This document shows positions 9,356 through 51,348 of a DNA stretch of 64,000 bases, piece by piece. Under the pieces are notes generated by a model. That model saw only the letters and a list, made by a program, of their open reading frames with translations, did no database searches and was not told the origin of the DNA. Position 1 is the stretch's first letter. Each line of letters starts with the position of its first letter. Origin of the DNA: an uncultured Eubacteriales bacterium (GTDB taxonomy: Bacteria; Bacillota; Clostridia; Christensenellales; CAG-1252); the NCBI GenBank assembly GCA_902797685.1, contig CADBTQ010000089.1, forward strand, positions 2,187-66,186, read 5' to 3'. The translations under genes and the position numbers were made by a program.

Positions 9356-9360
9356 TAGCC

Positions 9361-11983: not shown

Positions 11984-11984
11984 G

Positions 11985-12635: not shown

Positions 12636-12646
12636 ATCGAATGTGA

Positions 12647-13339: not shown

Positions 13340-13345
13340 CGTTTT

Positions 13346-13354: not shown

Positions 13355-13409
13355 CGTTTTAATACACTTTCTGCATAAGATTACTTATTATTAACACATC
13401 GACCGCCTT

Positions 13410-21000: not shown

Positions 21001-24000
21001 GGGCGCTACCTTCCCAATTCTCATAGTTGGGATCGTTCCAAACGATAGCGGAGACCAGATAATAACCCGCCTGTTTGACGCTAGGCATAGTACGCTCCAC
21101 GCCGGCGGCTATCTTTTCGGAGACGGAAAGGACGTCGTTGCCGTCGGTATCCACGTATTGATTACCGTGTAACACGGGAGTAGCGGAGATGGAACCGCCA
21201 ACGATCGCCAAGCTGCCCGTATAAGACAGTTCGTCCACGTAGTAACGGATGTCCGCGACTCTGCCGTCGGGCAAATACATGGTATTCATCGACGTACTGA
21301 AGTGGCTTCCGCTGGGATCGGAAGGCGACTTGGATGCAACGTAAAGTCCGTAATTTGAGCCCTTGTAAACCAACGGATCGCCGTCAGACTCCAAGTAATC
21401 GGCCAAATCGAACGTATCGATAACGCCTTTGGACAAGCGAACGTTGATCGTCCGCGACCAGCCCTCGTAGTTATCCGTCTCAAACACAACGGCGGTGATA
21501 GCGTACGATCCCGCGTTGGTGATACCGTTGTTGCCGCTGTTATACGAGTCATCCGGACCGAAGTACGAGTATTCGCCGTTGACGTAAGTCATCTCGACCT
21601 CGATATCATCGTACTGATACTTGCGCGTATACGCCGTGTACGAACGATCATCACTGTTTTGACGGCTCAATATCAATTGTTTGTAGTCCTCTCCGGAGGA
21701 AGGATCTACCGCGAAGAAGTAGTAATAGTTGCCCAAGTAGTAACTGCCGAGATCCAGTTCACCCGTGTATTGGAAAGCGAAGTAGGAATCGATCGACGCT
21801 TTTTGCATAACGACGTTAGTGAACTGATTGTTTTGCAGATCATAGTTTTTGACGATGGCGTTGGGCACTTGCACGTACATCGAATACGTGCCCGCGTTAC
21901 GCATGACGGCGACCCTTACGCCATCCTTCAACATCTCGATACCCATGGCTATCACGTTGCCGTTACCGTCGGTATAGTCGTAATCTTGGGCAAATACGGA
22001 CATATGGACCACGCCGTTGGCGTCTGCGCCATAGGCGGCGACGTCTCTATCCTCACCCAATAGCTCGAACCAAGCGCTAACGGCGCGCTCTTGCCCGTTA
22101 TAAACCAACCCGTCCGAATTGGGACGATCCCATTCCACCGACGTAGAATACTTGGCAATGGTCGCAGTCTTGGTCAAATCGAGTAAGAGATAGTTGTCAC
22201 CGATCGTCTTGTACGTACCGGCGGCAATGCCTTCATATTCGCCGGATGCAATCGTCCAACTGCTAAGACGGCTGTCCGTCGAAGCAAGAACTTCATATTC
22301 GCCGGCGTCACGGTAGGTCGTGGAAACTCCGTTCCGTTGGAAACGCAGATCGAACAAGAACAAGCCGTTATTTGACAACGAGATATCGTTGGCGTCATCG
22401 CCGAGCATATCTACGAAAGCATAGGTGACGGTGTAAGGTTGCACGCCGTTGGCAGTGTTGGCGGTCAGTGACGACATGTCGCGAGCATAACCGTTATAAG
22501 TCAAGTCAAGATCCACCCATTTGATCGTAGAAACCAACGGGATCAACAAAGGCTTGGACGCCGTGGCGGTGACGGTGGTGACCAATTGATAATTGACGCC
22601 GTCGATTCCCACGAAGCCAAACACAACCTCGGTGACTTCTCGTACGTTTTTGCTGTCGTAATGCGCGGACAGAGAAACACTGTCTCCTTCGAAAGTACGA
22701 TATCCTTCGACGTAATACTCACGATCGTTGAGATCGATGGAAGTATTGTTAAAAGTAGGACGCACGCGGTCGGTACCGTCGTATACGCGACTCCAGTCGA
22801 TGCCGTCGATCAACTTAATCTGTTTGGGCAAGATAGTACCATACAACTCGTCGTAGACATAGTTATTCACCAACCCTGCCACATCGGTATCCATTGTAAC
22901 GACCATCGGTTTAGACGTACCCGCGGTCTTTGTCGCAAACGAAACGCTTACGGACAAATCGTTGGCGTCCAAAGGCGCGATACCCGTTACCGTATAAGCC
23001 GAATAATCGATCGTCGTATCGTACACCTTGGTCCAAGCGCCTAATTCGGAAGTGGAAGTGAAAGTGAGACGTCGTTTTTCGATCGTGAGTTCGCAGTATT
23101 TGATCCAAGGCTCATAATCGTCTCGGATCGATTCGTCCATAACGATCTCGGCACGCACATAGTTAGTGCCGGCGTTCTTGAGGCCCACAAACGCGTTTTC
23201 GTACAGATTGCCGTTGTCGGTATTAAATGTGTACGAAATGGTAGCGCTGTCGTCGCCTTGCATATAAGCGGAAACGTCAGACACCAAGGGAGCGTCGTGC
23301 CATTCTTCTTGGTCGTATGCGCTGACGTAGTGGGTCGCGCCGTCATAAGTGACGGTTTGCCCGACCAAATACAAATCGACGGTCGCTTTTTCGATCGTAA
23401 TGCATTGTATCAACTCCCACGAGTTAGACAGGTCGTAGTTGCCATCGTCGAAGCAAGCGATCACGACGTATTCGCCCGCATGGTACAACGAACTCGGCTG
23501 CTTACCTATCAAGGACTCGACGGAAGCGCCGTCGACTTTGACATACTCCGCCGAAGTGGCGACAAAGGACGGATCGCTCAAAGTGGAGTAATCCCAGCTC
23601 AACGTACTCGACAGATAAACCGACATGGGCAACGTCTGCGCGCCGCCCTCGGCGGATACCTTAGTCAAGGAAGCGTATACTTGAGACGTTTGATCGTAAC
23701 CGTTATAGGTCATGCCGTTTCCGGCGGGCTTATGCCATACCAACGACGTGGCAAACGGCAAAATACGATAAGGTGCGGTAGCGACCCAACTATCGTAATT
23801 GCCGTTGGCGTCGGCGGTGATCTCGGCACGAATGGTATAGGTACCCACGTCCTTGACGCCGCTCATCGCGACATACGCGCTTCCGTTCTTGGACACGGTA
23901 TAGTCGATACCGATGGTCAGTTGACGTCCGCTTGCCAACGTGTAAGTCAACGTTTCGACCGTGCTGTCCAACCAAGCGGAGGTACGGTTGTTGACGCCAA

Positions 24001-27000
24001 CGTAGTGAGTCAAACCGTCGTAAACTTGATCCGAATCGGGTCCGTTGAAAGAAAGCGAACCCAAGTAACCTTCCGCTGCGTTGATCTCGCCGTCTTTGAA
24101 TGCAAACACGAGTTTGGTGATCTCGAGGACGACGACTTTTTCGAATCCGTCGTAGTTGACGTCAGCGGCGATCGTCGCTTTGACCCATACCTTGCCCGCA
24201 TTTGTCAATCCCGCAAAGGTATGATCGAACGCACCGTTTTCGGCGGTGGCATACGTATACGATACCGGAATCACGAACGTACCGTTGGCGTTGCCGACAT
24301 ACGTGATACCATGCGGATCAACGGTGTAGTACAAAGACGCCTCGGGCGCGGTGTCGTTCCATTCGTTGAGATTGCGGCTGATCGTGGCGTAGTGGGTCAG
24401 TGCGTCGTAAGGCAGAGTCTTGCCGACCAAGTACAGTTCACCCAAGCTATCCGCCGTCCAGTGCAATTTTTCGATATGCAGCGTTACGGTGTCCGTCCAA
24501 CCTTCGTAGTTGGTCGTCTCCGCGATCGTAGCGGTGATAGAGTAATCGCCCGCGTTTTTGGTCGGGACAAAGTCCGCTCCGCCCACCGTATAGGCGACGG
24601 GGATACGCAGGGACACGCTACCCGTCTCGATCGTCAACTCGTTGATGTAGTCGTCCACCCAGTCGTCTTCGCTACGCGAAACGCCCGCAAAGTGCTCCGC
24701 GTTGTCGAAGATCAGATCGGCGCCGGTGTAATACAGTGCGCCCAATTCTCCTTCGACCCAAGCCAGTTTGCGGATACGCAAAGTCGCCGTCTTGACCCAA
24801 CCTTCGTAGTTATCGGTACCGACCACTTCGGCGCGCACGTTGTACACACCCGCGTCGGTCGCCGAAACGAAGGGATCCGAATAGGTACCCGTCGCACCCA
24901 AGAAATAGGTGTACGCCACGTCGATCGACAACGTCCCGCCCGCCAAGACGTATTGCAACGTCGTGGGTTGTTGATCCAAATAGGCGTTGGCGTCGTTGAC
25001 GCTCATATAGTGGGTCAATCCGTCGTAAGCGAATTCGGTGCCCACGAAGTATTTGACGCCCAAGTAACCTTTGGCGATATTGACGTCCGAAGTCTCGGGA
25101 TCCAAAGCAAATTGCAATTTGCTGATGGTCAAAGTCGCCTCGCCCTCGAACCCATCGTAATTGGCGGTGGAGGCGATCGTCGCTTTGACGTGATAGACTC
25201 CGGCGTTGGTAGCCGACGTAAAGTCGGAGTCATAGCTGCCGCTTGCGCCGACATAGTAGGTATAGTTGATGGCGATCACCAACTCGCCGCCCGCAAGCGA
25301 ATAGGTCAAAGACAGAGGATGCGTATTGGTATACGCGTTGGAGTAACTGACGCCGATCGTATGCGAAAGCATATCGTAAGCGGTGGTGGTACCCACGAAA
25401 TACAAATTGCCGAGTTTGCCTGCCGAAACGTCGATCGAAGCGCCGCTGAACGTGAGTTTTTTCACTTCGAAGGTGGCAAACCCTTCCCACCCCTCGTAAT
25501 CCTCGGAGGCGGCGATGGAAGCGCGAACGTACACCTTGCCGCAGTTGCTGATACCTCCAAACGTTTCCACATAGTTGTCGGAACCGTCGGTATTGTAGGT
25601 ATAAACGACGGGAACTACGACGTTGGCAGTCGGATCGCCATTGGACAGCAAACTAACGCCGTCTTGTTCGACCAAGTAACTCAAGCTTGTCAACAAGGAG
25701 GGGTTGAACGCGTTGTCGGTGTTGACGCCCACGTAATGGGTAAGCATATCGTAATAGGACTCGCCGCTCACGAAGTAGAGTTGATCGAAGTCGTGTTGGG
25801 CGCCCGTCCACTTGATCTTTTGGATAGTCAGTTCGACCTCGCCTTCCCATCCGTCGTAGTTGTTGGTCTCCGCTACGATCGCTTTGATCGAATAGGTCGC
25901 GGAATGCAGCGCGCCGTCAAACGCGTTGTCATAATTGCCCTCGCCCACGTGATAACGGTATTCCACGGGGATCTGCAAGGTCAGATCGCCGTACTGATAG
26001 GTCAACTCGGTCACGTTTTGATCCACGTACGAGTCCGCCGTATGAGATACGCCGACGTAGTGGGTGGTCGCGTCGTAAGTGCGGGTCGTACCCGTCAAAT
26101 ACAGTCTGCCCAAATGACCGGCGTCGTCGATCCATTGCAATTTGTCGATCGTAAAGGTCGCGGTATCCGTCCAACCTTCGTAGTTGATCCCTTCGACGAT
26201 ACTGGCGCGGATGTTGTAGACGCCAGCGTCTTGGCAATACTGGAATGCGTCGTCATAGTTGCCGCTGCCTAGGGCGCCCTTGTAATACGTATAAGCGACG
26301 GGAACGGCAAGATCGTAGTTGCTTCCGTTGCCGATGACAAAGCCGTGCCGCTCTTGGTCGTACACATAATACAAAGTGGTCACGTATTCGTTGTTGTACG
26401 CGTTGACGGTATTGACGCCCACGTAGTGGCGAGCACCGTCGTACAATAGCGAATTGCCCTCGTTGCCGACGAAGTACAGTTGATCCAAGTGACCGCTTTG
26501 CCCGTTCCACTTGAGCGCGTCGATTTGCAAAGTCGCCGTATCCGACCAAGCGCCGTAGTTGCCGTTGACGTCCGCTTCGATCACCGCTTTGACGTAGTAA
26601 AGCCCCGCGTCGCGCTGACCGACGAAGGAAGATCCGTACGTCGACGTGCCATCGGTGTTGTACACATAGCTGACGGGGATCACCAAACTGTTGGATCCCA
26701 GTTGCACCGTGATGCCCGAAACGAGTTGATCGAGCCAAGCGCTTCCCTCGGTCACGCCGAGATAGTGAGTGCTCGCGTCAAAGAGGGTCTCGCCGCTGTT
26801 GAGGCGCAGATCGCCGATCTCCCCTGCGACGTATTGCAAGGGCGAGATGACCAAACTGGCGTCGCGAGACCACGCTTCGTAGTTGTTGGCGTTGCGGTCA
26901 TTAGCATAACCGACGACCGCTCTCAAATAGTAGGTACGACTGTTGACGGCACCGGTAAAGACGTTCTCATAGACATCTCCGCCGTCCACGTTGTAGTAGT

Positions 27001-30000
27001 AAGTGATCGTCGCCACGCCGTCGGTTCCCAACAAAGACACTTCGCTCAAAGGCGTGCTGCTGTAAGCGTCGGCTGTGTTGACGTATGCGTTGTGCATCAA
27101 CATATCGTACTTGAACTCGTTGCCAACGAAGTACAGCGAGGTCAGTTGACCATTGCCGAATCTGGCACGCTCGATAGTCAAAGTAGCGGATTGAGACCAC
27201 GCTTGCCAGCCACCGTCGGCAGGAGACGCAACATGTGCGGTCACCACATAAGTGCCCGCGTCGATCACGCCCGTAAAGGCGCCCTTGTCCACTCCGTTTT
27301 GAGTATACGTGTAGGTAACGCCGACGTCGATCGTACCACCCGCCAACACGTACGAGAAACTGCTTGCGAGCGAGTTGCTCCAACCATCGGTACGGCTGAC
27401 GCCCGTATAGTAGGTATTGGTGTCGTAGGATACGGTGTGATCCACGATATACAAACCGCCCAAATATCCGTTGGCAACGTCGGCGGCGCCCGTCGAAGGA
27501 TCGACGGCAAACACCAGCTGTTTGACGAGCAAGGTGGCGGTATCCGTCCACGCGTCGTTGTTGACGGTAGCGGCGATACTCGCCGTGATCGTATAAGTCC
27601 CCGCCACCGAAGTGCCGTCGAACGCCACGCCGCCTTGTTGATACACTACAGGCAAACTGACGTTGCCGTCGAAGTAGGTGATCGCATCCACTCTCGCGTC
27701 CACCGATTCGTCCGACTTGCTGACGCCCACATAGTGGCTCAACTTGTCGTAAGCGACGGTGACGTCGCCGAAGTAGAGCGTTCCGACATAACCTTTGGCG
27801 GGTTGTCCTTCGGCAAAGTGCAATTTGTTAATGGTCAAACGAGCCGAAGAGGTCCACGCGACGTAGTTGTCGCCCTCCGCGATATGCGCGGTAACGTCGT
27901 AAGTCCCCGCGTCGGTGGCACCCGTAAACGCTTGGGCTTCGCCGCCGTTGTAGGAGGCGGTATAACTGACGCTCACGGTCAAGCCGAGGGACTCGTAGTG
28001 AATAACGGAGACCATATCGTCCAAATATGCGTTAGAACGATTGACCCCCACGTAGTGCGAGATCGCATCGTATGCGCGTTCGTTGCCGACCAAATAGAGT
28101 TGACCGAGGTGTCCGTCTTCGTCTGTAAAGCGAAGTTTTTGGATCTGCAGCGTGGCGACGCTCGTCCAGAACTCGTAGTTTTGCGCTACGTCGTTATCTT
28201 CGATCTCGGTCAACGCTTGCACGTAATAGGTACCGGCGTTGATCGCACCCGCAAAGGTATTGGGGTAAGTATCGTTATCCACGGTGTTGTAATAGTATCT
28301 GATCTTCGCTGTGCCGTCGCCCGAAAGCAACGCCACCGTTGCGGTTGCGCTATCCAAATATTCGTCGATGGTGTTGACGCCCACGTAATGGCGATCAGCG
28401 TCATAGATGCGGGTACTTCCGTTGAGATACAAGGCGGGCAAATGACCCAATGAACCGTCGAATCTCACTTTGTCGACAATGACGGTACCTGTCAAAGTCA
28501 CGTCCTCGTAGTCGCTATATCCGCCTACTTCGTGGTGCAAAATCGCGGTCAACGCATATTCGCCCGCGTTTTTGATCCCCGCAAAGGAAGATCCGTTAGC
28601 TAGCAAAGTGACCGAGGCGGTATCGCCTAACGCCAAACCGTCGCTCAACGCCATACCGCTCGGACGAATGCTAAACGATGACACGAACGATCCGTTGTCG
28701 TCCAAGTAGGTTTGGGTCGCACCGTTGACATTGACGTTGACGTGCAAGGTATGCGTATCATAGACTTTTTGGAACACGCTGCCGCTTTCTTCGATCAAAC
28801 CGAACGTCCTCGCTTGCTCGTTGCCGCTGACCGCCGCCCACATCGTGGCTTTGCTTACCGTCAACGTAGCGGTTGCGCTGTAAGCGTTGTAATCGCGATG
28901 CGATACGGTGGCGGTGATTTCGTACGTGCCGGCGTGCAAAGCGCCCGCAAACGCCGAGTCGCCCACCGTATACGATACTGCCGCTTGCTCCGCAAACGAA
29001 GTATTGGTACTGGGACTGACCGTCACGGTATCGCCAAGCGAAGCGCGCGAGATGGCGTTGGCATTGGTGGACGTGACCAAATTGAGGAAGTAGTCGCTAC
29101 CGTCGTAAGTCACCGTTTGTCCGGCAAAGGATATGCCGGAAATGGTGGCGGGCGTAATGGTCAGAGTCCCCGCGATCGTCTTGGCAAAGTAGTTGGAGTT
29201 GTACGCGATCGTATTGCTTGCTGCGTTTTCGTTGATATAGACGGTGACGGTATAAACGTCGGCATGCAACATCGACACTTTGCCGTTACCGTACACGATA
29301 CCGTCCGAACTTCCGCTCGCGGAAGACACGCTGTAGCGGATATTGACGTTTTCTTCAAACTGCGTCTGATTGTCGGTGACCGCATAATCTTTGCTTTCGC
29401 CGGTATAAACGCCGGACACGGAAGAAACGCGAATGGACGTGATATCCACCGGCCAAATGATCATCGTATTGGTCAAAACTTTTTGCTCGTAATCGTTGAC
29501 CGCTTCGCCTATGGCGGTGATGGTCGCCGTGATGCGGTAACTACCCGCGTCTTTGGCGGTCGCGTTGTCGAATGCACCCCTATCCGCAAAGCTGTTAGAA
29601 CCGGGAGCGGCGTATTCGTAGGTATAGGTCACGCTTGCCAAATCGGAAGTGTTGGCGCCGCCGATCGTCAAGGTGATCTGCGATACGATAGACGTGTTGA
29701 TGATGTCCGCGCTACGGCTGACGCCCACCGAATAATAGGAATTGGTGTAGTCGTAATGTCTTGGGTTGGTACCGTCCGCATTGGTGGTCAACTCGGGCAA
29801 ATTGAGATAGACGCTCTCGATCTGGATCGCGTTGACGGTGACGGTGACCTCGGACAAGACGTAATCGACGTAGTTGTCGTTGTGCAAGACGGCGCTTATG
29901 CGATAGGTACCCGCATGCAGTAGCGAATGGGTATTGGTGACCGTACCGACGGGATTGGTGTACACGTAGGTATAGGTGATCTCCGCCTCGTCCGTACCCG

Positions 30001-33000
30001 AAACGTAACCCGCACTAAGAGACGGACGAACGGCGATCGCGTTGACGCCCGCGTCTTGTAACAGAGTAGCGTTTTGAGTATTGACGTTAAGATACCTGAC
30101 ACGGCTGTCGTAGTCGTACGACGTACCGACCAAGTAGAACAGACCGCTACCCGTACCGGTGGTATTGCGCATAGTCGCTTTGTTAATGGTCAGCGTACCC
30201 GTGATCACCTTGGACTCGTAGTTGGTGCTTTCCACCCCGTTCACGGTCGCTTTGACGGTCGCCACGATGGTATAGGTACCCGCATTGACGGCGCTATTGC
30301 CGTCCACGCCGTTGATCTTGTAGGATACCGAAATAACGGTGTTATCCAGATCGTACAGATCGGTATGCGTTCCGTCCGCCACGTTGACGGACAAACTGTG
30401 CGTTTGCTTGTTGTAGTCCACCGCAAGCGTATCGGGCGACATCGTGATCGAATCGCCGTTTGCCGTCTTGATCTCGGCGGTGGCGATCGTCAGAGTCTTG
30501 GTAAGCGTGAGGGTGTTGTAGTTGGAATTATCCTCGCCGACCTCGGCGGTCACGACGTACACGCCCACGTTTTTGGCGCCGTTGGTCACACCGACCTCGG
30601 CGGTACCGCGCGTGACGCTCAGCGCATAGGACACGGACACCGATTCGCCTAACTGCGTCAAGACGGTCGTTGCCGACGGAGACGCCGCCTCGTTGAGTGA
30701 CACGTACTGAACGCGCGCATTGTAGACGGTCGAATTGTCGTCCATCGACACCACGATATCGGCGGGAGTGATGGTCAAGACCGCATTGTACCGCGAATGA
30801 TCGGCGGTATTGGGCACGTTGTACGTCACGTAGTCTTGGTGGCTCAACGTAGCGGTGATCGTATATCCCGCTACTTCTCCATTGACCCACAAAACGTCGG
30901 TAGCCGCGTTGGCGTTAGCCCCGGAAGTAGTTGCGCCGCCTTGCGGCGTGATGGTATAAGTCACGGTCAGCACGTCGCCCAAAGCGGAAGTCGTATCCAC
31001 CGTAACGGCGTGGGAAGTGGTATCGTAGATCACCGTACTGTCGGCGAAATACTTACCCGTGATCGTCGCCTTGTCGATACTCCAACCAAGAGTAGCCCCC
31101 GATGCGACGTAATAGTTGTTATTGTTGATGGTGTAAGTCGCTTGGTAGGAGTCGCCCGCATGCAATGCGGTATTGCCCGAGACGGCGGCGTCAAGATCAT
31201 CGCCCGCGACAAGGCCCGATTGCGCCACGCCGTCCACTTTGCCGACGGAAGGCGTCAAAGTACGGGTTTGGGCGTTGTACACGGTGGTATAGCCCACCCA
31301 TGCGCCGCTATCGTCGCCCGTCCAGGTGATCTTGAGTCCACGTTGAGCGATGCTCCAAGAGTAAGTAGCGTCCGAACTGATGACGTAGTTGGCGTCCGAA
31401 ACGGTGATCGTGCGAGTGTAGTTGCCACGGTTGACGTAGGTATAGGTATAGGTAATACCGTATACGGTCGTGCCGCCACTCACTCGATTGCCGCCCGTAA
31501 CGGACGTGGAACCGTCCACCCCGCCGAGGGACAGGACGTCGCCCGCCACGATGTTGTCAACGAACAAAGTAACGGATTGCTCGTTGCCGTCATACACCGA
31601 GTGCGCGCGTGCGTCAGTCCAAGCCAAGCTCAATTCGCGTTGGGTGATCACACCGTTGGTGAGGGTAATGGTCGAATTGGTGAGTTCGGAAGCGTTGCCG
31701 TCGTCGCCGAACTTGTAGTTGACCGCGTCGCCCGTGGATCCCAAGCTATAAGTGATGGTCTTGCCTGTGCCCGCATTCTTGTTGTCGTACAAAGCGGTAA
31801 TGTTGAGGGTATCGCCCGTCAATATCGCGCTGCTATCGTAGTCAAACTCCACCAAGTTGGTACCGTCGTACGTCTTGGACGTGGAACCCATCGTCAAGTG
31901 GATACCCTTGCGATAGATAGTAGCCGCCAAAGTCAACACGCCCGGCGTGCCGCCGTTGACGACCACTTCGTAGTTGGCGCTTTGCGTACCGCTGACGACG
32001 AACGTAATGGTACGACTGCCGGCAACGAACGAATCGTAGGACGCGCTCAAAGTAACGGGTGCGTCTGCCAACACGCCCGTGTACGTATAAGAGGTATAGG
32101 TAGATTGACGATCGTAGACCTTGTCGTAGTCGGTGGCGGTCACGATCAACTGCTTACGGAAGATCTCGCCCGCGACAGTCGCCGAAACGGTCGTGGTTGC
32201 GCCCGCATGCAATTCGAACAGGTAATTGAGTCTATCCGCGCCGCTCAAAGCAAACGTCAAAGTGCGGTTGCCCGCCAATGCCGAGTCGTAGGTCGCGGAC
32301 AAAGTCGCCTTGCCAGCGTCCACGATACCCGTATTATTGGTCGTGTCGAGCGCACCCACCGTGTAATCGGAGTAAACGGTGGTGGTATCGTAATCCCTGC
32401 TCCAAGCGGTGGACGCGGTATTGGTGATGACGATGAGACGTTTGCTCACGGTCAACACGCGCTCCACGGCTTGCGACGTGCCGTTGACGTTGTCGCAAGT
32501 ATAGGTACTGGTACCGCCGCCCACGGTGTACACGATATTGTACGAGGTGGAGCGATACTCTCTGGTGACGGTATTATCGAGGAATTGCGCATAGGTGTAC
32601 GCCACGCCGTCGATATAAATGGTCATTTGTTGGGGTGTGTAACCCACGATGGTGGGATAATCGGTGTACGGGTTGCCGTCAAACACCTTGTCCACGTCGG
32701 CGCTGTCGTCGGTGACGAAACCACCCGGCGTTTGCGCTACGACAAACTTGAAGGCGTAGCCGTTGGGAGCCGCCGTGACCACCGTCGAGGACTTGGGATA
32801 GACGACGTTGCTGCCCGCAAAGTAGGTGGGATCCACCATACCGTAATCGTTGCCGTAGACGGTGGTGTTCTCAAACACGAAGTTGCCTGCGTCGCTACCC
32901 GTCAGGCTCAGCACCACGTAATAGGTGCCCGCGTGGTTGGGACCGAAGCTATGGAAGCCCACCGTACCGTTGTCGTTAAACACAAACCATTGATGGTCTT

Positions 33001-36000
33001 GATCGAAGGTGTAGTAGGGGCTGGGATAATTGCTGCTGGTGGGATGATAATGACCGCAGGTACAGAATCCGAAGTAAGTGTACCCGAAGTCAACGTCCGC
33101 CGAGGCAAACACACCCGACATGGAAGCTTCGAAGTTGTGATAGATACCGCTGGCAAAACCGATGGACACAGGCCACTCGATGGAAGAACGACTGCCGCTG
33201 TTTTCGACGCCCGAACCGTTGCTCGTGAAGTATTCCCAACTCATATCCGCCTTGGCGATCACGAAGGGAGTGATACTAAACGGTAGATTCGTATTGGCGT
33301 TGGTCAAGTTGTAGTTAGTGTTGTTGATAGTCAACCTAACGTTGTAATTGCCCACGTTGATCGCATTGACCGAGGACAAATTGTCGGTCGCCACGGCGAT
33401 CGTATCGCCCGTCACGGCGTTCGTAAAGGACACGTTGAGGTCGCCGATCGTCACCGCCGCGGCCTTGTATTCTACCGAAGTGTTGCCCAAAACAGCAGTC
33501 ACGTTGCGGCGAGTGACGTTATACGTCCTGGTAACGGTAGCGGGCAGCTTGTAGTTGCCGTTGGACAAAGCCGCAGCCGTCGCGGTATAGGCGGTATCTT
33601 TGGCGTTGGTGTTGACGCCACCCGAAACGGTGACATTGACGGTATCGCCCGAACAGGCGTTGCTGACCGTAGCGGTCACGGTATGGGGATTGCCGTCGTA
33701 CGTCTTGCTAAACGTGTTGCCGCCGTCCATTTGCCATACCAAGATCACTTCTTTTTGGTCAATGCTCCACTCGGCGCTAAGCCCCGTCGCGGGCAAGGCG
33801 TAGTTGTCGTCGGACACGCCGATCACCGTGACCATATAGGGAGTAGCGGAGTAATCGACCGCGCCAAAGGTCGTGTTTACGCTATACGCGCCGCCCGATT
33901 GGGAAGTCGTGCTAAAGACGTACCTGCCGTTTTGAGGCACGCTACCCGTGTTGTTGACGGTGATGCTCGGTTGATCGCCGGTCAGAATATTGCCGACAGT
34001 CAGCACCACACCGTGTTGACTTGCGTCGTATGTCCACGATCCGTCTTGGGGAGCGCCGTTAGTCGTGTCGTAGTTCCACTCGACGGTAAGGACGCGTTTG
34101 GCGATCTCCCACTCCCCTTGCAGTCCGGTGTTGGGCAACGCATAGTTGCCGCCCGGGTTGGAAGCGATAGCGGTGATCAAAGCGGTGTACGCGGTGTTCT
34201 TAGCGTTGATCGCCAAGAAGGAGTAATCGCAAGTTTGCAAGGTCAACCCGCCCGACGTGTAGGTCGCGCCCACCGTCTTGGCGGGAGTGTTGGTGCCGTC
34301 GTTGAGATAACTAAACGTAATGTTTGCGATATCACTCGCTAAGATGTTACCCAAAGTCACGACCACACCGTGCTCGTTGCCATCGTAGACGTAACCGCTC
34401 TTGGCGGAGGTCGTATTGAGGTCGGGATCGGTCGCCCACCAAGCGTTGTTTTTGTAGTAAGTAAAGGAGCCCGTCCCAAAACCGATATCGCCGGTTTGAT
34501 CCGCGCCGTTGTTGTTGAAGATCACTTGCGTGTAAGCGGTAGACAAGGTCGCTTTGTACCAGCCGTCCCCTTCGCTCGTCATCGCCACGCCCGGCCAACC
34601 GTTATTGGACGAACCGTTCCAGGCGTAGACGTAAGGCGTAGCCATAGTCTCGGTGTAGAAGTGTACAGTCACTTGATCCGCCTGCGCGGGTTTGGTATCG
34701 CTCCACTTGCCGTTGTAGTAGGGCGCGTCTTTGACGAAGACCAAGTCGCCCGAATTGTTAGAAGTGTTGGAAGCGTCCACGAATTGGATACGATTGGCGA
34801 CGCTGTTGATCGTAGCGCTGTACCAACCGCCGCCAATGGCGGTCATCGTCACGCCGGGATACGATCCGAAATCGGTCGTCTTGGTCTCATAATTGACGTC
34901 CGCCTGACACCAAGCGTAAGCGGAGGGTCTGCTCCACCCGTTGGCGTTGTAATAGTACACCGTGGTGCTGCCGGGCGCTTGGGGCAAGCCCACACCCCAG
35001 AAATAGGTGGGATAATCGACGCTATACGACCAATCGCCGTATTGATTAGAGCCGTTGTCGCTAAAGATAACGGTCGAATACGAACTGTCGATCAACGCGC
35101 CGTACCAGTTGGTATCGCCTATGCGATTCATCGCCACGCCCGGCCAAGCGACGTAGTTGCCCGAGCCGTTGTACGCGTACGCATACGGCGCCGACATACC
35201 TTGATGGTTGTAGAAGTAGACGTATGCCATTTCGCCGTGCGAATCGTCGTCGTTCCACTCCAAGCTGATCACGCGTTGCGCGATGTGGTATGCGTTGGAG
35301 CCCGAGGAAGTCAACTTGTAGTTGGAAGCCGCCACGTCGGCGGAGTTGGCGTGACCGGAGAGCGCCGCAACGGACGTGATGCCGTTGATGCTGACGGTGT
35401 AGTCCCCGTGATTGACGCTAGTAAAGGTATACGAAGAATTGGTCGCGGCGTTGGTAATGGTAGTCGCTTCGTTGTTGTTGGTCGAAGCCAAAGTGAATCT
35501 GACCGTCTCGTGAGCGGCGATACCCGCGACCGCCAAATTGAGACCTTGCGAGGTGCCGTCGTACGTGCCGCTGTTGGTGCCGAGCAAACTCCAAGTCAAC
35601 GTGATCGTCGCTTGCTCGATCGTCCAAGTACCTTTGTTGGTATTGACGTAGTAGTTTTCGTTTCCTTCGTTGTAATCGGTCAAACCGGTCACGACCGCCT
35701 CGTAAGAGCCCGCTTTGACGGCGTTAAACGCTTGGGTCAAAGTGGACGAGGACGCTTGACTATACGTTAAATATGCGGAAGAGGGCGATTTACCGGTGTT
35801 GGTATAGGTCAGTCGCACCGTATCGCCCGTGGCAATACCGGTCACCGTCAACGTGACGCCGTGCGCCGCCCCGTCGTAGGTGGCGGACGCCGCCGACCAT
35901 GCCACGGTCAGCAGTTTGGGTGTGATCCGCCAAGTCGTCTGGAAGTTGCTCGCCAAAGTATAGTCGCCGTAAGTATTGGAGATGGATTTGATCTTGGCGA

Positions 36001-39000
36001 CGTACACGTCGCGGTTGGTAGCCGTATTGGCATACTTCGCCGTCACCGACTTGTTGTCCACGGTCACGGTGGTGGTGCCCGTCGTCTCGTAGGTCACGGT
36101 GATCACGTCCCCGCTTATTTGATTGTCAAACGTAGCGGTGACAGTATGAGAATTGTGATCGTATTCAAACTCGGTCGTACCCCAGCTGACGTTGGATTGC
36201 TCGATAACGCGAGGCAATATCGTCCAAGCGGTTTCGACGTATTGAGCGCCATTGGAGTCGAACGCATAGTTGGTGCGGAAATCGCCCGAGATGGTCGCTC
36301 TCGCGGTATAGGAGCCTTGGTGCATCTTGGTATTGTTGCTGTAACTAAAGGTAACGTTTTCGCCGCTGACCGCGCCCGTCGCCACGGCGGTCACCACTTG
36401 CTCCGTGCCGTCGTAACGAATAGTCGAAGAGGACAGATCGCTTCCCTTCCATTTCCAAGTGGCGCCGATCACGCATTGTTTGATCGTCCAGTCTTGGCTG
36501 ACGACCGCGGGCAAGCAATAGTTGGCGTTATTGACCGAAGACACGGTCACGGTATAGGCGCGAGCGTTTTTACCGGTATTGCCGGTGTAAGCGATGCTGA
36601 CCGAGTCGCCCGAAACGATCGTACTCGACGTGATAGTCGGCGTAACGCTGCGCGTTTTGCCGTTGTAAGTGGTCTGGAACCCGCTCCAGGTACCCAAACC
36701 GTCTTTGACCCAGTTGATCCCGACTTCCTTTTGTGCGATAGAATAAGTCTTGAGGTTGTTGTCCGCTAAGGTGTAATAGTTTTTAGACACGCCGACATCC
36801 TCGTCCAAAGACGGGATCGTGGCGCGATAGTTGTTACCCGCTTGCGAGGTATACACGAACGTATACGTGTACGTATCAAAACCGGCGTTGGTGGACTTGG
36901 TATCGTAGGTAAAGTGGATGTTGCCGCTGTCCACGGCGTCGTTGGCGGCGGTCATGCCCGTGACCGTGCCCAAGAAACCGACGGTATCTCCTTCGATGAT
37001 ACCCGTCAAAATGACGGTGGGGCCTTGCCCTTGTCCGTTGTAGGTCAACGCCGCCGTGTCTTGCCACGAGATCGTGATCGGTCTGGGATTGATACGCCAG
37101 TTCAGTTGCCTTGCGGATACCGAGGCGGGCAAACAGTAGTTGGCGCTGCCTGCACCCGAGATAGAAGCGACTTGGGCTGTGTATGAACCCACTTCGGTGG
37201 CGGTATTGGATCCTTTCGTCACGTTATAGACCCACTGCCCGTTTTCGACGTAACGCGCCAGGTTGTGCGTCGTATAGCTCACCGAGATGGTGGCGTCGTC
37301 CACAAGACCCGTTACGTTGCTGACGGCAACCGTCCAAGCACCGTAGAAATACTCAAACGGCGTGCCGCTGTAATTCCAGTCAAAGCCGACGGGCTTTTGC
37401 GCGATGCTCCAATTCCCTTGATTGGAGGGCAGGGTGTAGTTGGTGCTACCGTTGTTAGTAGAGGCGATCGACGTCAATTTGGAAGTATAACTACCGGCGT
37501 TGACGCCCTTGAAATCTACCGCCATCGTGGTAGAAGAACCGCTCGTGACAAAACTCGAGCCGGACGGAGAAGTACCGTTGCTCGTGAAATTGATCGTGAT
37601 CTTATCCGTCTGGACCAAATTGCCCACGGTGACCTTGATACCTTGCGCTTGGGCATTGTAAACAAGTCCCGAGGCGGTCGACCACCCTACGGTCAACGTC
37701 CTTGCCGAGATGGTCCATTGATACGACCAGTCGCTTGCTTGGTAACCCGCGTCACCCGAGGTGGCGATGCGGTAGTTGAACGAAGGTTCACAACCGTTGA
37801 TGGTCAAGGTGTAAGTACCCGCATTGGTCGCCGAATTGGTCACTATGCCGCTATTGGCATAGGTAAACGCCACGCGATCCGTGCCGACGATGTTGCCGGG
37901 CGTAGCGATCACGGTATGCACGGCGCCGTCGTAACCAAACGAAGCGGTACCTTTGTCGGACACGCTAAGTATGCGTTTGACAATGACATAAGCACTGCCC
38001 GATTCGTTGGACGTCAAGGTATAGTTGGCGACGTTGATACAGTTGCGCGTATTGGCGTCACTACTCGAAGTGTACGTAGCCGAAGCCAAGGCGATACCCG
38101 TCACCGCATACGAGTCGGCGTTGATCGAACTGAACGCATACGACGCGTTGTTTTGAACGTTGGTCGAATTGTGTACGATACCTTTGTTGAGATAGTTGTT
38201 GTTAGAGAAACTCAAACGAACGGTTTCGGCGTTTTGGATACCCGTAACGCGGGCGACCACACCGTGTGCTTCGCCGTCGTATTGTACGCCGCTGTCGTCG
38301 TTGAGCGCGCTCCACGTGATCGTTATCGCTTGTTGCGAAATGGTGTAAGTGTATTGCGTCGTACCCGCCAAAACATAGTTGGCGTTGGAAAGCACGTTGC
38401 CCGACGTCAAAGCGATAGTCACCTTGTAATCCGCCGCTCTCACGCCGCCGAAACTGTACGTGTTGCTATTCGACGCCACGTCGATAGTAGCACCCGAAGC
38501 GGGCGTCAAACCGCTGACGGCGATTGCCGAATTGGTGCCGATGGTGTAGCCGGAACCGCTCACGGACAAGCGTACCGAATCGCCCGCCGCCAAGCCCGTC
38601 AGCGTCAACGTGGCAGGATTTTGTACCGTACCGGTATAAGTCTTGCCGACTTTGCTCCAGCTGGCGTTCACCTGTTTGGGGGTGATCTCCCAACTCTTGC
38701 TCGTGGTAGCGGGCAACTGGTAGTTGGTGTTGCTGATCCCCGTCACGGTGGCGGTATAGGTGCCGACCGCTCTGCCCGCAAAAGAGGAAGGAGTCAACGT
38801 CACGGTATCCGTACCGACGAGGCTCGAGGAGCTGACCGCCGCATACACGTAACGATCGCTGCCGTTGTATTCCGCTTTGAAGTTGGCAAAGGCGGGCGTT
38901 GCCGTATCGGTCGTCCAAGTCAGATCGACGATCTTGGGCGAGATCGTCCAAGTGCCACTCAAAGTGGAGCCGTCCTTAAACTTGTAATTAGTCGAATTGA

Positions 39001-42000
39001 ATCCGGTCAACGTAGCGGTATAGTGACCCCCGCCCACGTTGGCGTTGACAGCCTTAAAGGTCTTCGAAACGCTCGTTGCGTTGCCGCTCGACGTGAAGGT
39101 ACCCGTTCCCGACGGATTGGAACCGTCTGCCGAAAAAGCAATGCCTACTTTGTCCGTCTTGACGAGATCGCTGACGGTGACCGAGATGCCTTGTTCGCTT
39201 CCGTTGTAAGTTAAAGTACCCGCGGGCATCCACTCCACGGTCACGGGACGTTTGTTGATCGTATAGTTACTGTTGCCCGATACCGAGAGCGTATAGTTGG
39301 TCACGCCGGCGTAAGTGCCGCTTGACACCGCTTTGATGCTCGAGATCGTCACGTTGTACGCTTGATCGTTGGCGTTGACGGAACCGAACACCCGAGCACC
39401 GTTGCCGTATTTGGTCGTACCGTTGTCGATACCCAAGGTGGCGTATGCCAAAGTAGAAGAGGTGTTGAAAGACACCGACTCGCCGTTTTGCAAACCGCCG
39501 ATGGTGGCGGTCACGCCGTGCGAAGTCCCGTCGTAGTTGGTCGAACCGGTCCCCGTAAAGGTCACGGTAACGGTGGCTTTGCCAAGCGAGAAGTTGGAGC
39601 TTGTCACGCTGGAAGCGCTCAACTTGTAGTTACTCATGCCGTTGAGAGCCACACTCGCGCCGTAATACCCCGCTTTGCCCGCTTGGTAATTTTGGGTCGC
39701 CAATCCGCTGTCATTCGCTTTGAGCGACAAATTGCCGGTAGGCGTGATACCGCTTCCCGCTAAGTTGCTACCGCCGTTAGACACTTTGGCGGTCGTCGTG
39801 TTAGTCAAATTGATGGTCTCGCCCGGCACCGCGTTGGAAACGGTCAACGTGGCGATCGTTTGCAAACTGCCGTTGTAAGTAGGCGTCGTCGCGGGCGTCG
39901 AGAAACTCAACGTCAACTGGCGTTGATTGATGGTATATTGAGTATTGGCATTACTCGCACCCAAGTTGGCGACCAAAGTGTAGTTGGCGTTGGACGCATA
40001 GGTACCGCTTACACTCGAGATCTCGACCGAACTCACCGAGTAAACGCCTTTGTTTTTGGACGTGAAGTTGTACGCGCCGTTTCCGACCGCAGCGCTCAAT
40101 CCGTTGCCCGCATAGGTCGTAGTCACGGCAAAGGTCACCTTGTCCGTTCCTTGAATATCCGAGATCGTCACCGTCACGCCGTGATTGTTGCCGTCATAAT
40201 CGCAACTGCCCTTGCCCGACCAACTCAACGAGATCGTGCGCGCGGCAATGGTCCACGACGCGGTCGTTTCGCTCATCGTATAGTTGTTATCCGAAAGCGA
40301 TACCGACACCTCGTAGTACCCCGCTTTGACGGCGGTATGCGCCTTGGTATTGGCGGCGGAAGACAAGGCATAACCCGTCGTGGGAGACAATCCGCTGTTG
40401 TCCAAACGAGTCGCTTTGCCGCTGTCGGTGTAAGCGGAAGCGGTCAAGCTCATATTGACCGATTCGCCGCTGACGATACCGCTCACGGTCAAGGTCTTAC
40501 CAAGACCTTGAGCGGTGTACGTTTGGGTATCGGCACCCGACCAAGAGGAAGTCAGCGCCTTTTTATTAATAATGGTACGCGCGCGAACGCTGCCTGTCGC
40601 CACGTTAAGCGCAGTGGACGTAGCGTTTTGCTTGTACTTGTTGGAAGAGTTGGTCAACGTGTAGTTGGTCGCCGCGGCATAATCGGTCCCTTGCGCGGCG
40701 TAGATAGCGGACACGTACACATCGTACGAGCCGTCCACGTGATCTTTGGAGGACAGAGTCTTCGCGACCCCTTCGCTCATCCAAGTGTTGTTGCTCTGCA
40801 CGCCTTGGGTTGTGTAATTGTTGGCGCCCAAAGTCAACTGCACCTGCTCGCTTGCCTGTAATCCGGTCACGGTCAAAGTCACGCCGTGCTGCGCTCCGTC
40901 GTAAGTGACGGTCTTGGTCATCACGCCGCTCGATACCGAGTCGAAGTTGCCGTCCAAAGACGCCCACGTTAAGGTCAACGTCGCTCGGGCGATCGCCCCG
41001 TCGTTGAAGGTGAGCGTATCCATCGTGTAGTTGCTCATGCCGTTGAGAGCGACCACCACTTTGTAGCTGCCTGCTTTGGCGGCTTGATAGGCGATAGTTA
41101 CGTTTCCGTTGGCGGCGGCAAGACCCGAAACGGGAGCGGTGGCGCCGTGACCGCTCAACGCGCCGCCCGAAGGAGCGGTAGCCGTCACGGTACTTGTGAT
41201 ATAGATGGTGTCGCCCGCCACGGCGTTGGTCAACGTGAGATTGGCATACGTTTGCACCGTGCCGTTGTAGGTCGCAGCGACCGAAGACATGGAAGCGGTG
41301 AGGGAGCGCGCGCTAATGGTCGTTTGGATCTTGTTGGCACTGTCGGTCACCGATTGCCCGCTCGTTAATAGCGCCGTAGTACCGCCCGACGTCTTGAGCA
41401 GGTTGCTGCGGTAGTCGTAAGCGTAGTTTTTGGCGTCGCTGTACGTCTTACCGGTCGCGCTGTTGATCCCGGTCACCCACACGGTATACGCGGTAGCTTG
41501 CGCATTGACTGCGCTAAAGACGTAACTCGTATTGGATACTGCGGTGGAGTTGTTGGCGATGCCGTTGGTGGGATAGGTAGAGGTGGTAGACAGTTTGATC
41601 GTCTCGCCCGCGACGATACCGCCGACCGTCACTTTGACGCCGTTTTGACTGCCGTCGTAAACGTAACTGCCCTTGCCGACCCTGCCGTCTTTGGTAAGGT
41701 ACGCGTTGCCCGAAGTCAAATTGTTGTTGGCTTGCCACGTCAAAGTAAGCAAGCTGCGATAGAAGGTCGCCGAAGCGGTGGCCGTTCCTTTGAGCGTATA
41801 GTTGCTCATACCCACCAAGGAGACGGTGAGCGAGTAGTTGCCCGCCTTGCCCGCCTGATACGTCTGCGATATCGTACCGCTATCGGGCGCGGTCTCGGTC
41901 TTGTTGCCGGTCGGCGTCAGACCCGTATTGGTCATGGTGGTATTTTCACCGTAATACTTGGTCGTAGAAGCGGTGTTCCAAGTCACGCTTTCGCCCGCAA

Positions 42001-45000
42001 CGATACCCGACAAAGTCAAAGTCGCTATGGTCTTGAGGCTACCGTCATACGAGGGCGAAGCGGTCACCCACGACGCCGTGATCTCTTTGGCGTTGATGGT
42101 GAGGGTCGCTTCGGTCTGGGCAAACGAATAGTCGTTGACGTCGGCGTAAGTGCCGCTTACCCCGTACACCGTGCTGACCGTCAATTTGTAGGTGCCCACG
42201 TTGGTCGCGCCAAATTGATAGGCGTCGTTGTCCAACCAAGTATCGTTGTTGGTCCAGCCGTTGGAAGTAAAGGCCTTGTTGGCGCTGTAAGTCAAACGTA
42301 CTTTGTTGCCACCGACAAGCCCCGCCACCGTGACGGAAAGGTTTTGTTGCGCACCCGTATAGGTCACCGTCTTGTCGCTCATCGTCAGGGTCAACGCCGC
42401 TTTGGCAATCGAGAAGTTGGACGTGGCGCTACCGCTTAGCGTGTAGTTGGCCGTATCGTTGACGGCAAGCGAAATGGTATAGTACCCCGCCTTGCCCGCT
42501 TGATAGTTGATCGTGATCTTGCCCGCAGAGTCGGCAGTGTAACTATTGCTGCCCGAAGGAGTTATACCCGTATTCGACAAAGAGGTATTGCGAGTGGTAT
42601 CGGTATAACTTGCCACGGTACTCGTCAATCCCAGCGCGTTGCTCGGTATGGCGCCCGTCACGGTGAGGGTGCGCCCCGTCTGCAGTGCGGCGTTGTAAGT
42701 CAAAGTCACGTCGTCGGACCAACTCAACGTCAGCTGGCGTTTGTTGATGGTCAAGGTCGCGCTCTTGGCAGTCAGGTTATAATTCTCTTTGCGCGCTTGT
42801 CCGCCGACTATGGCATTGAGGGCGGTCACATTGACGGTGTACGTCCCCGCGTTGGTCGCTCCGAACTTGTAGGCGGTGTTGTTAGTCACTTGGGTGGAAT
42901 TGCTTGCGATCTCTTTGGTAACAAACGTACTGCCCGTATTGGTAATGGTCAACTTGGCTTTTTCACTGCCCTGCAGACCGCCGATACTTACGGTCACGTT
43001 GTGCGCTTGTCCGTCATAATCGACGGCAACGTTTGCCATCGTCAAAGTAAGGGTGCGTTTGCCTATCGTCCAATTGGCGGATTTGGAGCCTCCCAAGGTA
43101 TAGTTGGGCATATTGTCAAGATCGATCGCCACCTCGTAATACCCCGCCCAGATCGCGGTGTACGCTTGGCTGCGCGAAACGGCGCCGCTTGCTAACGTCA
43201 ACGAGGCGGCGGTGGGCGTCAAGCCGCTCCCGGAAAGAGCGGTACCCTTGCCGCTGTCGGTGTAAGCGGAAGCGGTGTTGGTCAAAGTAAGGTTTTCGCC
43301 CGCCACCATACCCGTGACGGTAAGGGTGCGGCCTTGTCCCGCGCCCGTATAAGTCAAGGTATTTGCCGCGCTCCAGGAGGCGGTCAAAGCCTTTTTGTTG
43401 ATCGTCAAAGTCGCGCTCTTGGCGGTCAAGGTATAATTCTCCTTGCGCGCTTGCCCGCCGACTATGGCGTTGAGGGCGGTCACGTTGACGGTGTACGTCC
43501 CCGCGTTGGTCGCTCCGAACTTGTAGGCGGTGTTGTTAGTCACCTGGGTGGAATTGCTTGCAATCTCTTTGGTAACAAACGTACTGCCCGTATTGGTAAT
43601 GGTCAACTTGGCTTTTTCACTGCCTTGCAGCCCGTTGATACGGATCGTCACTTCGTGCTGTTCGCCGTCGTAGTCGACCGTCAACGAATCCATCGTCAAA
43701 GTAAGGGTACGCGTTGCGATGGTAAAGCTACCGGGCTTTACGCTCGTCATACGATAGTTCGCGCTACTAAGGCTGACGGTCGCGTCGTACGTCCCCGCGT
43801 TGACGCCCACCACGCGCACGGTCAAAGTGCCGGTCGCGTTGGCGCCGGGTCTTGCGTACTGCATCGTGCCCGCCGAAGTCGTCAACACAAAGCTTTGGCT
43901 ATCGCGCACGTAAATGGCGTTGGTGCTTTCCGAGGCGATATTCGCTTTGGTCGAGGCAAAGTGCTTGACCGTAACGGTCGCCTTTTTGCCCATGGGGTCG
44001 GCATTGTAGGTATAAGAAGACCCCGAAGCAAAATAATCGCTCCAAGCACTCAACGTCACGGTCTTGGGGGTAATGGACCACGCTCTTGTGGGATTGGACA
44101 ACACAAAACCGCTGTCCTCGGCAAGAGACGCCGAAATACTATAGTCTTTGGCGTCGATCCCTGTATTGTTGGTCAGAGTGATCGTGCCCAAATCGCCGAC
44201 CGACAGGCTGCGGCCGCTGTTGTCGTCGTACGCCACCGCGCTGACCGCGAGGGTGTAGGTCACCCCGCCGTACGGCAGAGCGATGGTCTCGGTACCGTTG
44301 TAGGTACCCCAAGTCACGGTCTGACTGCTACTATTGAGATAAGTGACCGTCCAGCCGGTGATCTTGGCGACGTTTTGGTAGATGTCAAATTCCAACATAT
44401 TGTTGGAAGGCAAGGTATAGTTGGGATTGCTGACCGCCGTAAAGCTACAAACGTAGGTCGCGCAGGTAGTCTTGTAAAACTCCACGACGAGGCCGGCTGC
44501 GCCCGAGATGGTCAAAGGATTGGGTGTAGAGTTGTTGCCCGCGGTCAAGGTCACGCTATCGCCCGCGAACACGCCGCTGACCGTGGCGCGCAAGCCCTGG
44601 GTGTATTGAGTGCCGTCCGCCTTTTTGGCGACATATTGGAAGCCCAAATGATTGCCGTCCCCGTCCAAACCGCTTTGGTTGGAAGTCACCGTCGTATACG
44701 TTGTGCTATCGCAGTAACCTCTTGCCCAAGAGATGGTCAAAGGTTTGGGCTCGATCTTCCACTCGGCGCTGGCGGCGTCGCCCGTGTAGTTGGACGCGCT
44801 CTCCCCTTTTGCCGTGGCGCCCGAAGCAAACAGCAGCCCATCGTCTCCCGAGAAGTTGGTACCCATGGGATTGGAGAGCGCGACTTTGTAGGTGGCAACG
44901 TTAGTCCCCAAAAAGTAGTACCCCGAAGTACCCAACCGAGTACCGCGACTGGAAGCGCTCGTGCGCTTGTTCAATGCGGAAGAGGTGGTCGTGGTCGTGC

Positions 45001-50911: not shown

Positions 50912-50950
50912 CGACAAAAAAAGCGCTCGGACGGAAACCGAGGAGCGCGC
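50912..50950 (-). terminator. Orphan minus-strand terminator-like hairpin
   Basis: The minus strand reads gcgcgctcctcgg-tttccgt-ccgagcgc followed by TTTTTTTT. No ORF is assigned upstream of it. Confidence 0.35.
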
Positions 50951-51136: not shown

Positions 51137-51282
51137 TCCCCTCCACTTTTTCTCTTTGTCTCTCGCCTTCAAACGCGTTTGGGGCAATGCAACGGTTAGC
51201 TTGCGCACGGTGGGTATGATCGATACAACAAGGTGATCGGTGCATATTGCACCACACCCTATCCGTATAGCGCCACGCCATA

Positions 51283-51316
51283 CAAAAACCCCTCTCGTGC
51301 GGAACTTGAGGGGTTT
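51283..51316 (-). terminator. Rho-independent terminator of the starch/ABC operon
   Basis: The minus strand reads cccctc-aagttccgcacga-gagggg followed by TTTTTG, 33 nt after the stop of the ATPase gene. Confidence 0.65.
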
Positions 51317-51348
51317 GCGAATGATTTGACGATACGGGGTGATACCGC

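Follow-up and report, generated by a model that had tools for sequence, protein, structure and literature searches.

A triple CBM26 block in a predicted giant adhesin encoded beside a starch-utilization cluster of an uncultured Christensenellales bacterium

The locus described here raises the question of whether a bacterial protein of 11,686 amino acids attaches its cell to starch, and whether it does so together with the starch-utilization genes that lie next to its own gene. The protein (hereafter the giant) is encoded in a stretch of 64,000 nucleotides from an uncultured Eubacteriales bacterium of the order Christensenellales (positions 2,187 to 66,186 of contig CADBTQ010000089.1, assembly GCA_902797685.1). 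We refer to this whole 64-kb stretch as the window, and all coordinates given below are positions within it; the genes of the giant, of the starch cluster and of the adhesin-like proteins downstream of the giant are all on the minus strand. An original prediction, made from the letters of the window alone, had proposed that a block of starch-binding-like modules at 34421-35230 makes the giant a starch-granule attachment scaffold similar to an amylosome.

Identity of the CBM26 block

Translation of 34421-35230 yielded three tandem modules of approximately 90 amino acids, flanked on both sides by matches to a profile of the immunoglobulin (Ig)-like repeats of the giant, so that the arrangement described in the original prediction is borne out. 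In the block, Pfam recognized three stretches of carbohydrate-binding module (CBM) family 26 (CBM26, PF16738), with an E-value of 4.9e-35 and a score of 120 bits against a curated cutoff of 28.1. We also built a hidden Markov model (HMM) from the modules of the window and iterated it over 155 database proteins. This module HMM placed the limits of the block at residues 4944-5214 of the giant (34418-35230), and a scan with it showed no fourth CBM26 elsewhere in the 11,686 residues. Module 1 covers residues 4944-5029 (34973..35230), module 2 residues 5030-5126 (34682..34972), including a loop insertion of nine residues, and module 3 residues 5128-5214 (34418..34678); all three are supported by Pfam, by alignment and by the module HMM.

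When a profile of the window modules was compared with the PDB, every solved CBM26 structure was matched, namely Ruminococcus bromii Amy16 (E = 2e-28), Eubacterium rectale Amy13K (2e-16), R. bromii Amy10 (8e-16), Sas6 (8e-10), the Bacillus halodurans CBM26 (3e-9) and R. bromii Amy12 (5e-5), whereas the sister family CBM25 reached just 0.03. An AlphaFold2 model of module 3, calculated from an alignment of 15 sequences, showed a predicted local distance difference test (pLDDT) score of 94.2 and a predicted template modelling (pTM) score of 0.84; it was used in place of a single-sequence prediction of the whole 270-residue block, which was unusable (pLDDT 43). In a Foldseek comparison of the module 3 model with the PDB, ranks 1 to 13 were all CBM25 or CBM26 structures, with template modelling (TM) scores of 0.73-0.77 to 2C3W, 6B15 and 2C3H, and Sas6 was also matched. 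A fold foreign to carbohydrate binding, which had been named as the outcome that would speak against a starch-binding type, was thus not what the model resembled.

We also inspected the residues that contact the ligand in this family. When aligned to the B. halodurans CBM26 (BhCBM26), each of the three modules has aromatic residues where that protein has Y23, Y25 and W36, namely Tyr/Tyr/Trp in module 1, Tyr/Trp/Tyr in module 2 and Tyr/Trp/Trp in module 3. The numbering was counted on the alignment and corresponds to that of Boraston et al. 2006. The corresponding platform residues of Sas6 are Y53, Y55 and W63. Modules 1 and 3 also keep the Gln that is conserved in the 'NG.NQ' motif; module 2 has Asn instead. 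According to the study of Sas6, the Tyr/Trp platform is the conserved ligand site of CBM26, and mutation of the equivalent Trp in a Lactobacillus module abolished binding; Sas20 uses the same platform. The family has been characterized as a binder of starch and malto-oligosaccharides.

Because the profile matches to solved structures, the predicted fold, the ligand residues and the published roles of these residues all agree, the identity of the block as true CBM26 starch-binding modules is confirmed at the level of sequence, profile, predicted structure and conserved aromatic triad. The CBM25/26-like type that had been proposed from the sequence can therefore be specified as CBM26, and binding of alpha-glucans by the block is a well-supported prediction.

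Such modules could nevertheless be left over from domain shuffling in a fast-evolving repeat protein, either decayed or purely structural, and bind no sugar. They are indeed divergent, being at most approximately 46% identical to any other module (763 compared), and their identity to the best database proteins is 33-38%; module 2 is substituted at two ligand positions, where WPG is replaced by YPG and the conserved Gln by Asn; and the giant itself evolves fast, as described below. However, the aromatic triad is present in all three modules and the conserved Gln in two, the Pfam scores are high, and AlphaFold2 predicts with high confidence a fold that is typical of CBM26. In addition, the three modules are 35-46% identical among themselves, which points to long maintenance instead of a recent insertion. 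We therefore consider a loss of sugar binding very improbable.

The relatives of the block were sought in several collections. A HMMER scan of 1.84 billion representative proteins returned 634 matches at E <= 1e-3, whose identity to the block was at most approximately 38% in the top ten and did not exceed 53% among the matches listed. The best of them are large CBM26-rich proteins of 1,371-3,998 amino acids with 5-24 CBM26 modules, some of which also carry Flg_new, Big_3 or PA14. A regular-expression search of these best matches revealed no GH13 motif, and Pfam, applied to seven of them, revealed no glycoside-hydrolase domain. Given this lack of GH13 motifs and Pfam glycoside hydrolases, non-enzymatic multi-CBM26 proteins, presumably displayed at the surface, are by their sequences an existing and uncharacterized class. 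The giant shows no similarity to other multi-CBM26 proteins outside its block, and its repeat type occurs in none of the 155 CBM26 proteins. No relative of the block was found in the GTDB species genomes; the JGI metagenomes gave one match at 28% identity, a protein of 1,150 amino acids with four CBM26 modules, and a word-index search of 5.8 billion clusters gave five short matches at 36% identity or less.

The giant protein and its gene

The open reading frame (ORF) of the giant (14999..50059) runs uninterrupted for 35,061 nt, is preceded by an AAGGAG ribosome-binding site and encodes a protein of 1.2 MDa. From its N-terminus, this protein consists of a predicted anchor, a unique region of 1,500 amino acids, a repeat array that contains the CBM26 block, and a unique C-terminal region of 1,700 amino acids. 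A hydrophobic segment at residues ~12-43 (49931..50026), the sole transmembrane-like segment of the giant on the Kyte-Doolittle scale, is predicted to be a signal or membrane anchor. Pfam scans and the terminal sequences revealed no LPXTG, SLH or choline-binding match, and the C-terminus is not hydrophobic. The array itself (residues ~1508-9980; 20120..45538) is made of MBG-like ('YDG') repeats of approximately 100-110 amino acids, which self-BLAST and iterated HMMs resolved into at least 60 units of a single superfamily. In the distal part of the array, Pfam MBG_3 scored 33 bits against a cutoff of 25, and the repeats are predicted to be beta-sandwich (Ig-like) units of a stalk. The CBM26 block lies approximately 42% along the chain and fits exactly between two repeat units, since matches to the repeat HMM stop at residue 4924 and restart at residue 5202.

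Taking these predictions together, we think it fairly probable that the giant is an N-terminally membrane-anchored fibrillar adhesin, in which the three CBM26 modules form a trivalent lectin block that tethers the cell to starch. The protein would be held in the cytoplasmic membrane by its single hydrophobic segment, and its ~60-75 diverged MBG-like repeats would form a stalk, for which we infer a length of a few hundred nanometres. The triple CBM26 would then act as a multivalent alpha-glucan lectin, each module offering a Tyr/Trp stacking platform. Given that single CBM26 modules bind weakly, a tandem of three may gain avidity for starch granules, for amylopectin or for malto-oligosaccharide chains. 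In this way, the cell would be tethered to starch particles, and the neighbouring GH13 pullulanase, two CBM26 lipoproteins and ATP-binding cassette (ABC) importer might process and import the products.

Repeat-rich genes are often mis-assembled, and the giant was not found in the protein libraries searched; the 35-kb ORF could thus be a chimera or a misassembly of repeats that received the CBM block from another gene. However, the frame is uninterrupted, and its repeats have diverged at the DNA level, with a single pair reaching at least 89% identity (319 nt at 89.7%) in 35 kb. The GC content at third codon positions (GC3) is uniform along the gene, and that of the CBM26 block equals that of its flanks. 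Moreover, an orthologue of 11,694 amino acids is called in a sister strain (L082; ENA ERZ27292096, contig k141_413732, 125 kb), an independent assembly from another sample, where it follows the same starch cluster in the same position. An origin by misassembly is hardly credible in view of these observations: the giant ORF is real and not an assembly artefact. Between the two strains, the giants are 91.7% identical in amino acid sequence over the first 2,900 residues compared, and the starch clusters are 96-98% identical in nucleotide sequence. The giant therefore evolves faster than its neighbours.

The first 1,508 and last 1,707 amino acids of the giant, which are its unique ends, had no homologue at E <= 1e-5 in the library of 5.8 billion clusters and no sequence relative in the PDB besides a rubredoxin-type knuckle; NCBIfam scans of the termini and of the neighbouring genes gave nothing informative. 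The knuckle (CxxCG...CPxC; residues 10025-10073, 19835..19990) scored 24.3 bits with Pfam Rubredoxin against a cutoff of 23 and matched PDB rubredoxins at E = 0.007. Its signature reads KCPDCGYVY ... WEDLPDNYQCPNC, and a zinc or iron knuckle is unusual in a presumably extracellular surface fibril. The C-terminal tip carries GLUG-like 'GGLIG' turns at a spacing of approximately 35 residues (residues ~11390-11530; 15470..15892), which lie within the last ~250 amino acids and were recognized by motif only, Pfam GLUG not being detected there. The lipoprotein encoded first in the starch cluster has the same type of motif, and no BLAST similarity was found between these two.

Relation to the adjacent starch cluster and the downstream genes

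The cluster lies upstream of the giant gene on the same strand and consists of seven genes in the order lipoprotein, lipoprotein, solute-binding protein, permease, permease, GH13 + CBM48 and MalK; the whole cluster is conserved in seven related loci (L002-L008). The first gene (62438..64000) is open to the edge of the window, so that only the C-terminal 520 amino acids of a GLUG-motif lipoprotein are seen, and the ATG listed at 63985 is internal. Its orthologues in L003 and L005-L007 are lipoproteins of approximately 870 amino acids with a lipobox and Fn3-like N-terminal modules. As the original prediction had noted, the protein contains a related module: one divergent CBM26-like segment (~62684-62986) is inserted inside the GLUG-motif region, with 40 bits in the module HMM and 23 bits in Pfam, below the Pfam cutoff. 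The second gene (60010..62427) encodes a lipoprotein of 805 amino acids, conserved in L002-L008, with Flg_new and four CBM26-type modules (residues 416-804). The module had been reported twice in this protein; its presence was confirmed, and the count proved to be four according to the module HMM, of which a canonical pair (residues 514-706; 60310-60888) scored 108 and 80 bits and two divergent copies 17 and 26 bits. Between Flg_new and the CBM26 modules (residues ~300-400), this lipoprotein has Cys-rich knuckles, EYWSCSECGKYY and CDYHVDADGDGKCDRCGKD, which may be small zinc-ribbon inserts akin to the knuckle of the giant.

Pfam assigned the remaining genes as a lipoprotein solute-binding protein (SBP_bac_8; 58635..59984), two ABC permeases (57145-58623 and 56258-57145), a pullulanase-type GH13 + CBM48 enzyme that is probably secreted by means of a cleavable-looking signal peptide (53392..56247), and a MalK-type ABC ATPase of 675 amino acids (51349..53376). 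Both neighbouring genes with CBM26 modules thus belong to an upstream pullulanase and ABC transporter cluster on the same strand, as originally described. The closest relatives of the pullulanase (66-75% identity) come from metagenome-assembled genomes labelled Christensenellaceae or Christensenella. The exact lipoprotein sequence was also present on a contig of an ENA metagenome assembly (STEW19) that is presumably a rumen dataset, so that the bacterium is taken to be a Christensenellales-like Firmicute of the rumen. The MalK protein continues for approximately 300 amino acids after the regulatory domain typical of MalK, and this long C-terminal extension is present at its full length in L002-L008.

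Several findings weigh against a starch-tethering adhesin that acts in concert with this cluster. The spacer of 1.29 kb between the giant and malK genes (50060-51348) holds two terminator-like hairpins. One (51275..51330) lies right after the malK stop codon and has a 9-bp GC-rich stem followed by U5 (-17.9 kcal/mol, z = -2.9); the other (50915..50950), 350 nt beyond the first, is followed by U7 (-13.1 kcal/mol, z = -2.5). As judged from the two hairpins and the length of the spacer, the giant gene is a transcription unit separate from the starch operon. Furthermore, its stop codon overlaps the start codon of a downstream Flg_new gene (13410-15002), and on this overlap the giant is predicted to be translationally coupled to adhesin-like genes instead of to the starch cluster. 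These genes are packed tightly with the giant (9404..15002) and include, after the Flg_new protein, two membrane-anchored proteins of 230 amino acids (12647-13339 and 11985-12680) with no Pfam or NCBIfam family match, and a lipoprotein with BspA-LRR and Flg_new according to Pfam (9404-11983).

The distribution of the giant among species points in the same direction. In the five related-species loci where the sequence extends 8 kb or more past malK (L003 and L005-L008), no giant gene or fragment of one was found within those 8 kb; its adjacency to the cluster is seen in the sister strain only, and none of 81 loci has a CBM26 and a giant-type repeat in one ORF. The modules of the giant are just 34-40% identical to those of the neighbouring lipoproteins. 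When 763 modules were compared, the neighbour modules ranked 25th to 317th for modules 2 and 3 of the giant, and none matched module 1. The claim that the block is shared with the adjacent starch locus therefore stands at the level of the CBM26 family and fails as a specific kinship. We also considered whether the modules of the giant had been copied from the neighbouring lipoprotein, and rejected this on the basis of the same identities and ranks and of a GC3 equal to that of the flanks. Taken together, the evidence for a tight coupling between the giant and the starch cluster is mixed and mostly negative. The proposal that the giant works with the neighbouring uptake system is weakened by its separate transcription unit, its adhesin-type partners, the five species without it and modules unrelated beyond the family.

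Other adverse points concern the block itself. Giant adhesins usually carry their ligand-binding modules at the distal tip, and the CBM26 block is in mid-stalk. There are just three CBM26 modules in 11,686 amino acids, and the unique N- and C-terminal regions, 3,200 amino acids in total, are unaccounted for, which suggests that starch may be one ligand among several. The two substitutions of module 2 belong here as well. In addition, the isolated CBM26 of Sas6 bound oligosaccharides and did not bind granular starch, so that binding of granules by the giant is not guaranteed.

The amylosome-like scaffold of the original prediction would bind starch and provide docking sites for the enzymes and binding proteins encoded next to it. 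The giant does adjoin a starch locus that also encodes CBM26 proteins, this adjacency is kept in the sister strain, and so huge a modular protein could hold many docking sites. However, Pfam detected no cohesin or dockerin in the giant (E <= 0.01) or in 17 ORFs scanned around it in the window (E <= 0.001-0.01), and the unique regions of the giant gave no cohesin even at E <= 1. The pullulanase shows GH13, CBM48 and a signal peptide only, and the binding proteins are lipoproteins with anchors of their own. Separate transcription of the giant, the same cluster without it in five related species and the absence of its repeat type from all 155 CBM26 proteins also argue against docking, which we regard as very unlikely. 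What remains of the claim is a starch-binding block in a giant predicted surface protein; the scaffold and the operon partnership were not borne out.

Another possibility is that the giant is a multi-ligand or cell-cell adhesin, in which CBM26 targets non-dietary alpha-glucans (glycogen-like or capsular polymers on microbes or protozoa, or host glycogen) and serves aggregation or biofilm formation instead of nutrient capture. This would agree with operon partners that carry Flg_new and BspA-LRR and no carbohydrate enzymes, with a block in mid-stalk, with the lack of cross-species synteny between the giant and the starch cluster, and with large terminal regions without homologues, which could bind other ligands. 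However, CBM26 is known as a binder of starch and malto-oligosaccharides, starch particles are plentiful in the presumed rumen habitat, and the giant gene directly follows the starch cluster in two strains. The mechanism would be equal to that of starch tethering, from which this possibility departs in the physiological target alone. We consider such a target unlikely, with an appreciable residual chance, and continue to favour an adhesin that tethers the cell to starch.

Some further features of the window were recorded. The 1.29-kb spacer contains a direct repeat of approximately 53 nt in three copies (50291, 50618 and 50808), two of which share an identical core of 37 nt. An ORF of 154 amino acids at 50377-50841 had no family match, is made of these spacer repeats and was judged spurious. 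No Rfam family matched the window, so that no known riboswitch or leader was found in the spacer. An exact-protein database lookup of the downstream Flg_new protein returned no record. At the N-terminus of this protein and of both 230-residue proteins, a hydrophobic segment precedes an 'A-(W/I)-(F/Y/W)-(S/T)-A' motif, an arrangement that resembles signal peptides of the SipW/TasA type. Two plus-strand features, a zinc-ribbon fragment of the serine-recombinase type and a DUF6994 protein (142-924 and 2395-3147), lie approximately 9 kb past the adhesin operon and are possibly the remnant of a mobile element.

Implications and comparison with known systems

A giant adhesin with an integral starch lectin would be unusual, and the giant would be such a case if it does tether cells to starch. 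No such case was present among the CBM26 proteins retrieved or in the literature found, in which we also found no report of a giant adhesin bearing a starch CBM and none linking CBM26 to Christensenellaceae. It would add a third architecture for the attachment to particulate starch, beside cohesin-dockerin amylosomes and Sus-like lipoproteins. We put forward, tentatively and as a rather doubtful extension, that it forms a long-range tether distinct from both: a membrane-anchored fibril of more than 11,000 amino acids whose mid-stalk triple CBM26 would work as a grapple, drawing granules to a cell surface that bears the CBM26 lipoproteins, the secreted pullulanase and the ABC importer, and whose orphan ends of 1,500 and 1,700 amino acids, including the rubredoxin knuckle and the GLUG-like tip, might add further binding or enzymatic functions. 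The CBM26 family, multivalent binding by CBMs and the plan of giant adhesins are each well known, so that the advance would be incremental and the combination new. The triple-CBM26 block is small and expressible, and it offers a functional handle on an orphan protein of 1.2 MDa. The rumen and gut harbour abundant Christensenellaceae-like bacteria, which are associated with health; to our knowledge, almost nothing is known about their nutrient uptake or surface attachment.

The modules of the giant share family, fold and the Tyr/Tyr(Trp)/Trp platform with the CBM26 of Gram-positive amylases, such as the B. halodurans amylase G-6 (2C3G/2C3H), E. rectale Amy13K (6B15) and R. bromii Amy16, Amy10 and Amy12. 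Unlike these, they are not joined to a glycoside hydrolase and lie in the middle of a repeat protein of 11,686 amino acids, with an identity of at most approximately 46% to any database module. The alpha-amylase of Lactobacillus amylovorus presumably has tandem CBM26 modules in an arrangement similar to that of the block.

Comparable too are Sas6 (CBM26 + CBM74, PDB 7UWW) and Sas20 of R. bromii, which are likewise non-enzymatic and hold starch at the surface by means of CBM26-type modules and Ig-like spacers. However, these proteins have approximately 600-700 amino acids and are joined to the amylosome by a dockerin, and the binding of granules by Sas6 depends on CBM74; in the giant, neither a dockerin nor a CBM74 was found, and it is approximately 17 times larger and has a predicted N-terminal anchor of its own. 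With the amylosome scaffoldins of R. bromii, the giant would share the theme of capturing starch at the cell surface in a Firmicute of the gut or rumen, whereas the cohesin and dockerin modules that define scaffoldins were found neither in the giant nor in its neighbours. A likeness to E. rectale Amy13K with its ABC transporters and to SusE/F of Bacteroides, that is, a combination of CBM lipoproteins, a secreted GH13 enzyme and an importer, applies to the neighbouring seven-gene cluster and not to the giant, and related species keep this cluster in the absence of the giant.

The closest relatives of the block itself (33-38% identity) are the metagenomic multi-CBM26 proteins P0006 (1,852 amino acids, 10-11 modules), P0012 (2,610 amino acids, 20-24 modules), P0027 (3,377 amino acids) and P0032 (3,998 amino acids). 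They are dominated by CBM26 (5-24 copies), are three to eight times shorter than the giant and do not have the MBG-like repeat. As for the plan of the whole molecule, a parallel is found in the giant repetitive adhesins with embedded lectins. Those adhesins are built of BIg or Ca-dependent Ig repeats, are retained by a type I secretion system and carry their lectin near the distal end, whereas the giant of this Firmicute has MBG-like repeats, an N-terminal transmembrane-like segment and a starch-type CBM in mid-stalk. The plan would nevertheless be the same in both, a long stalk of beta-sandwich repeats that projects a few ligand-binding modules.

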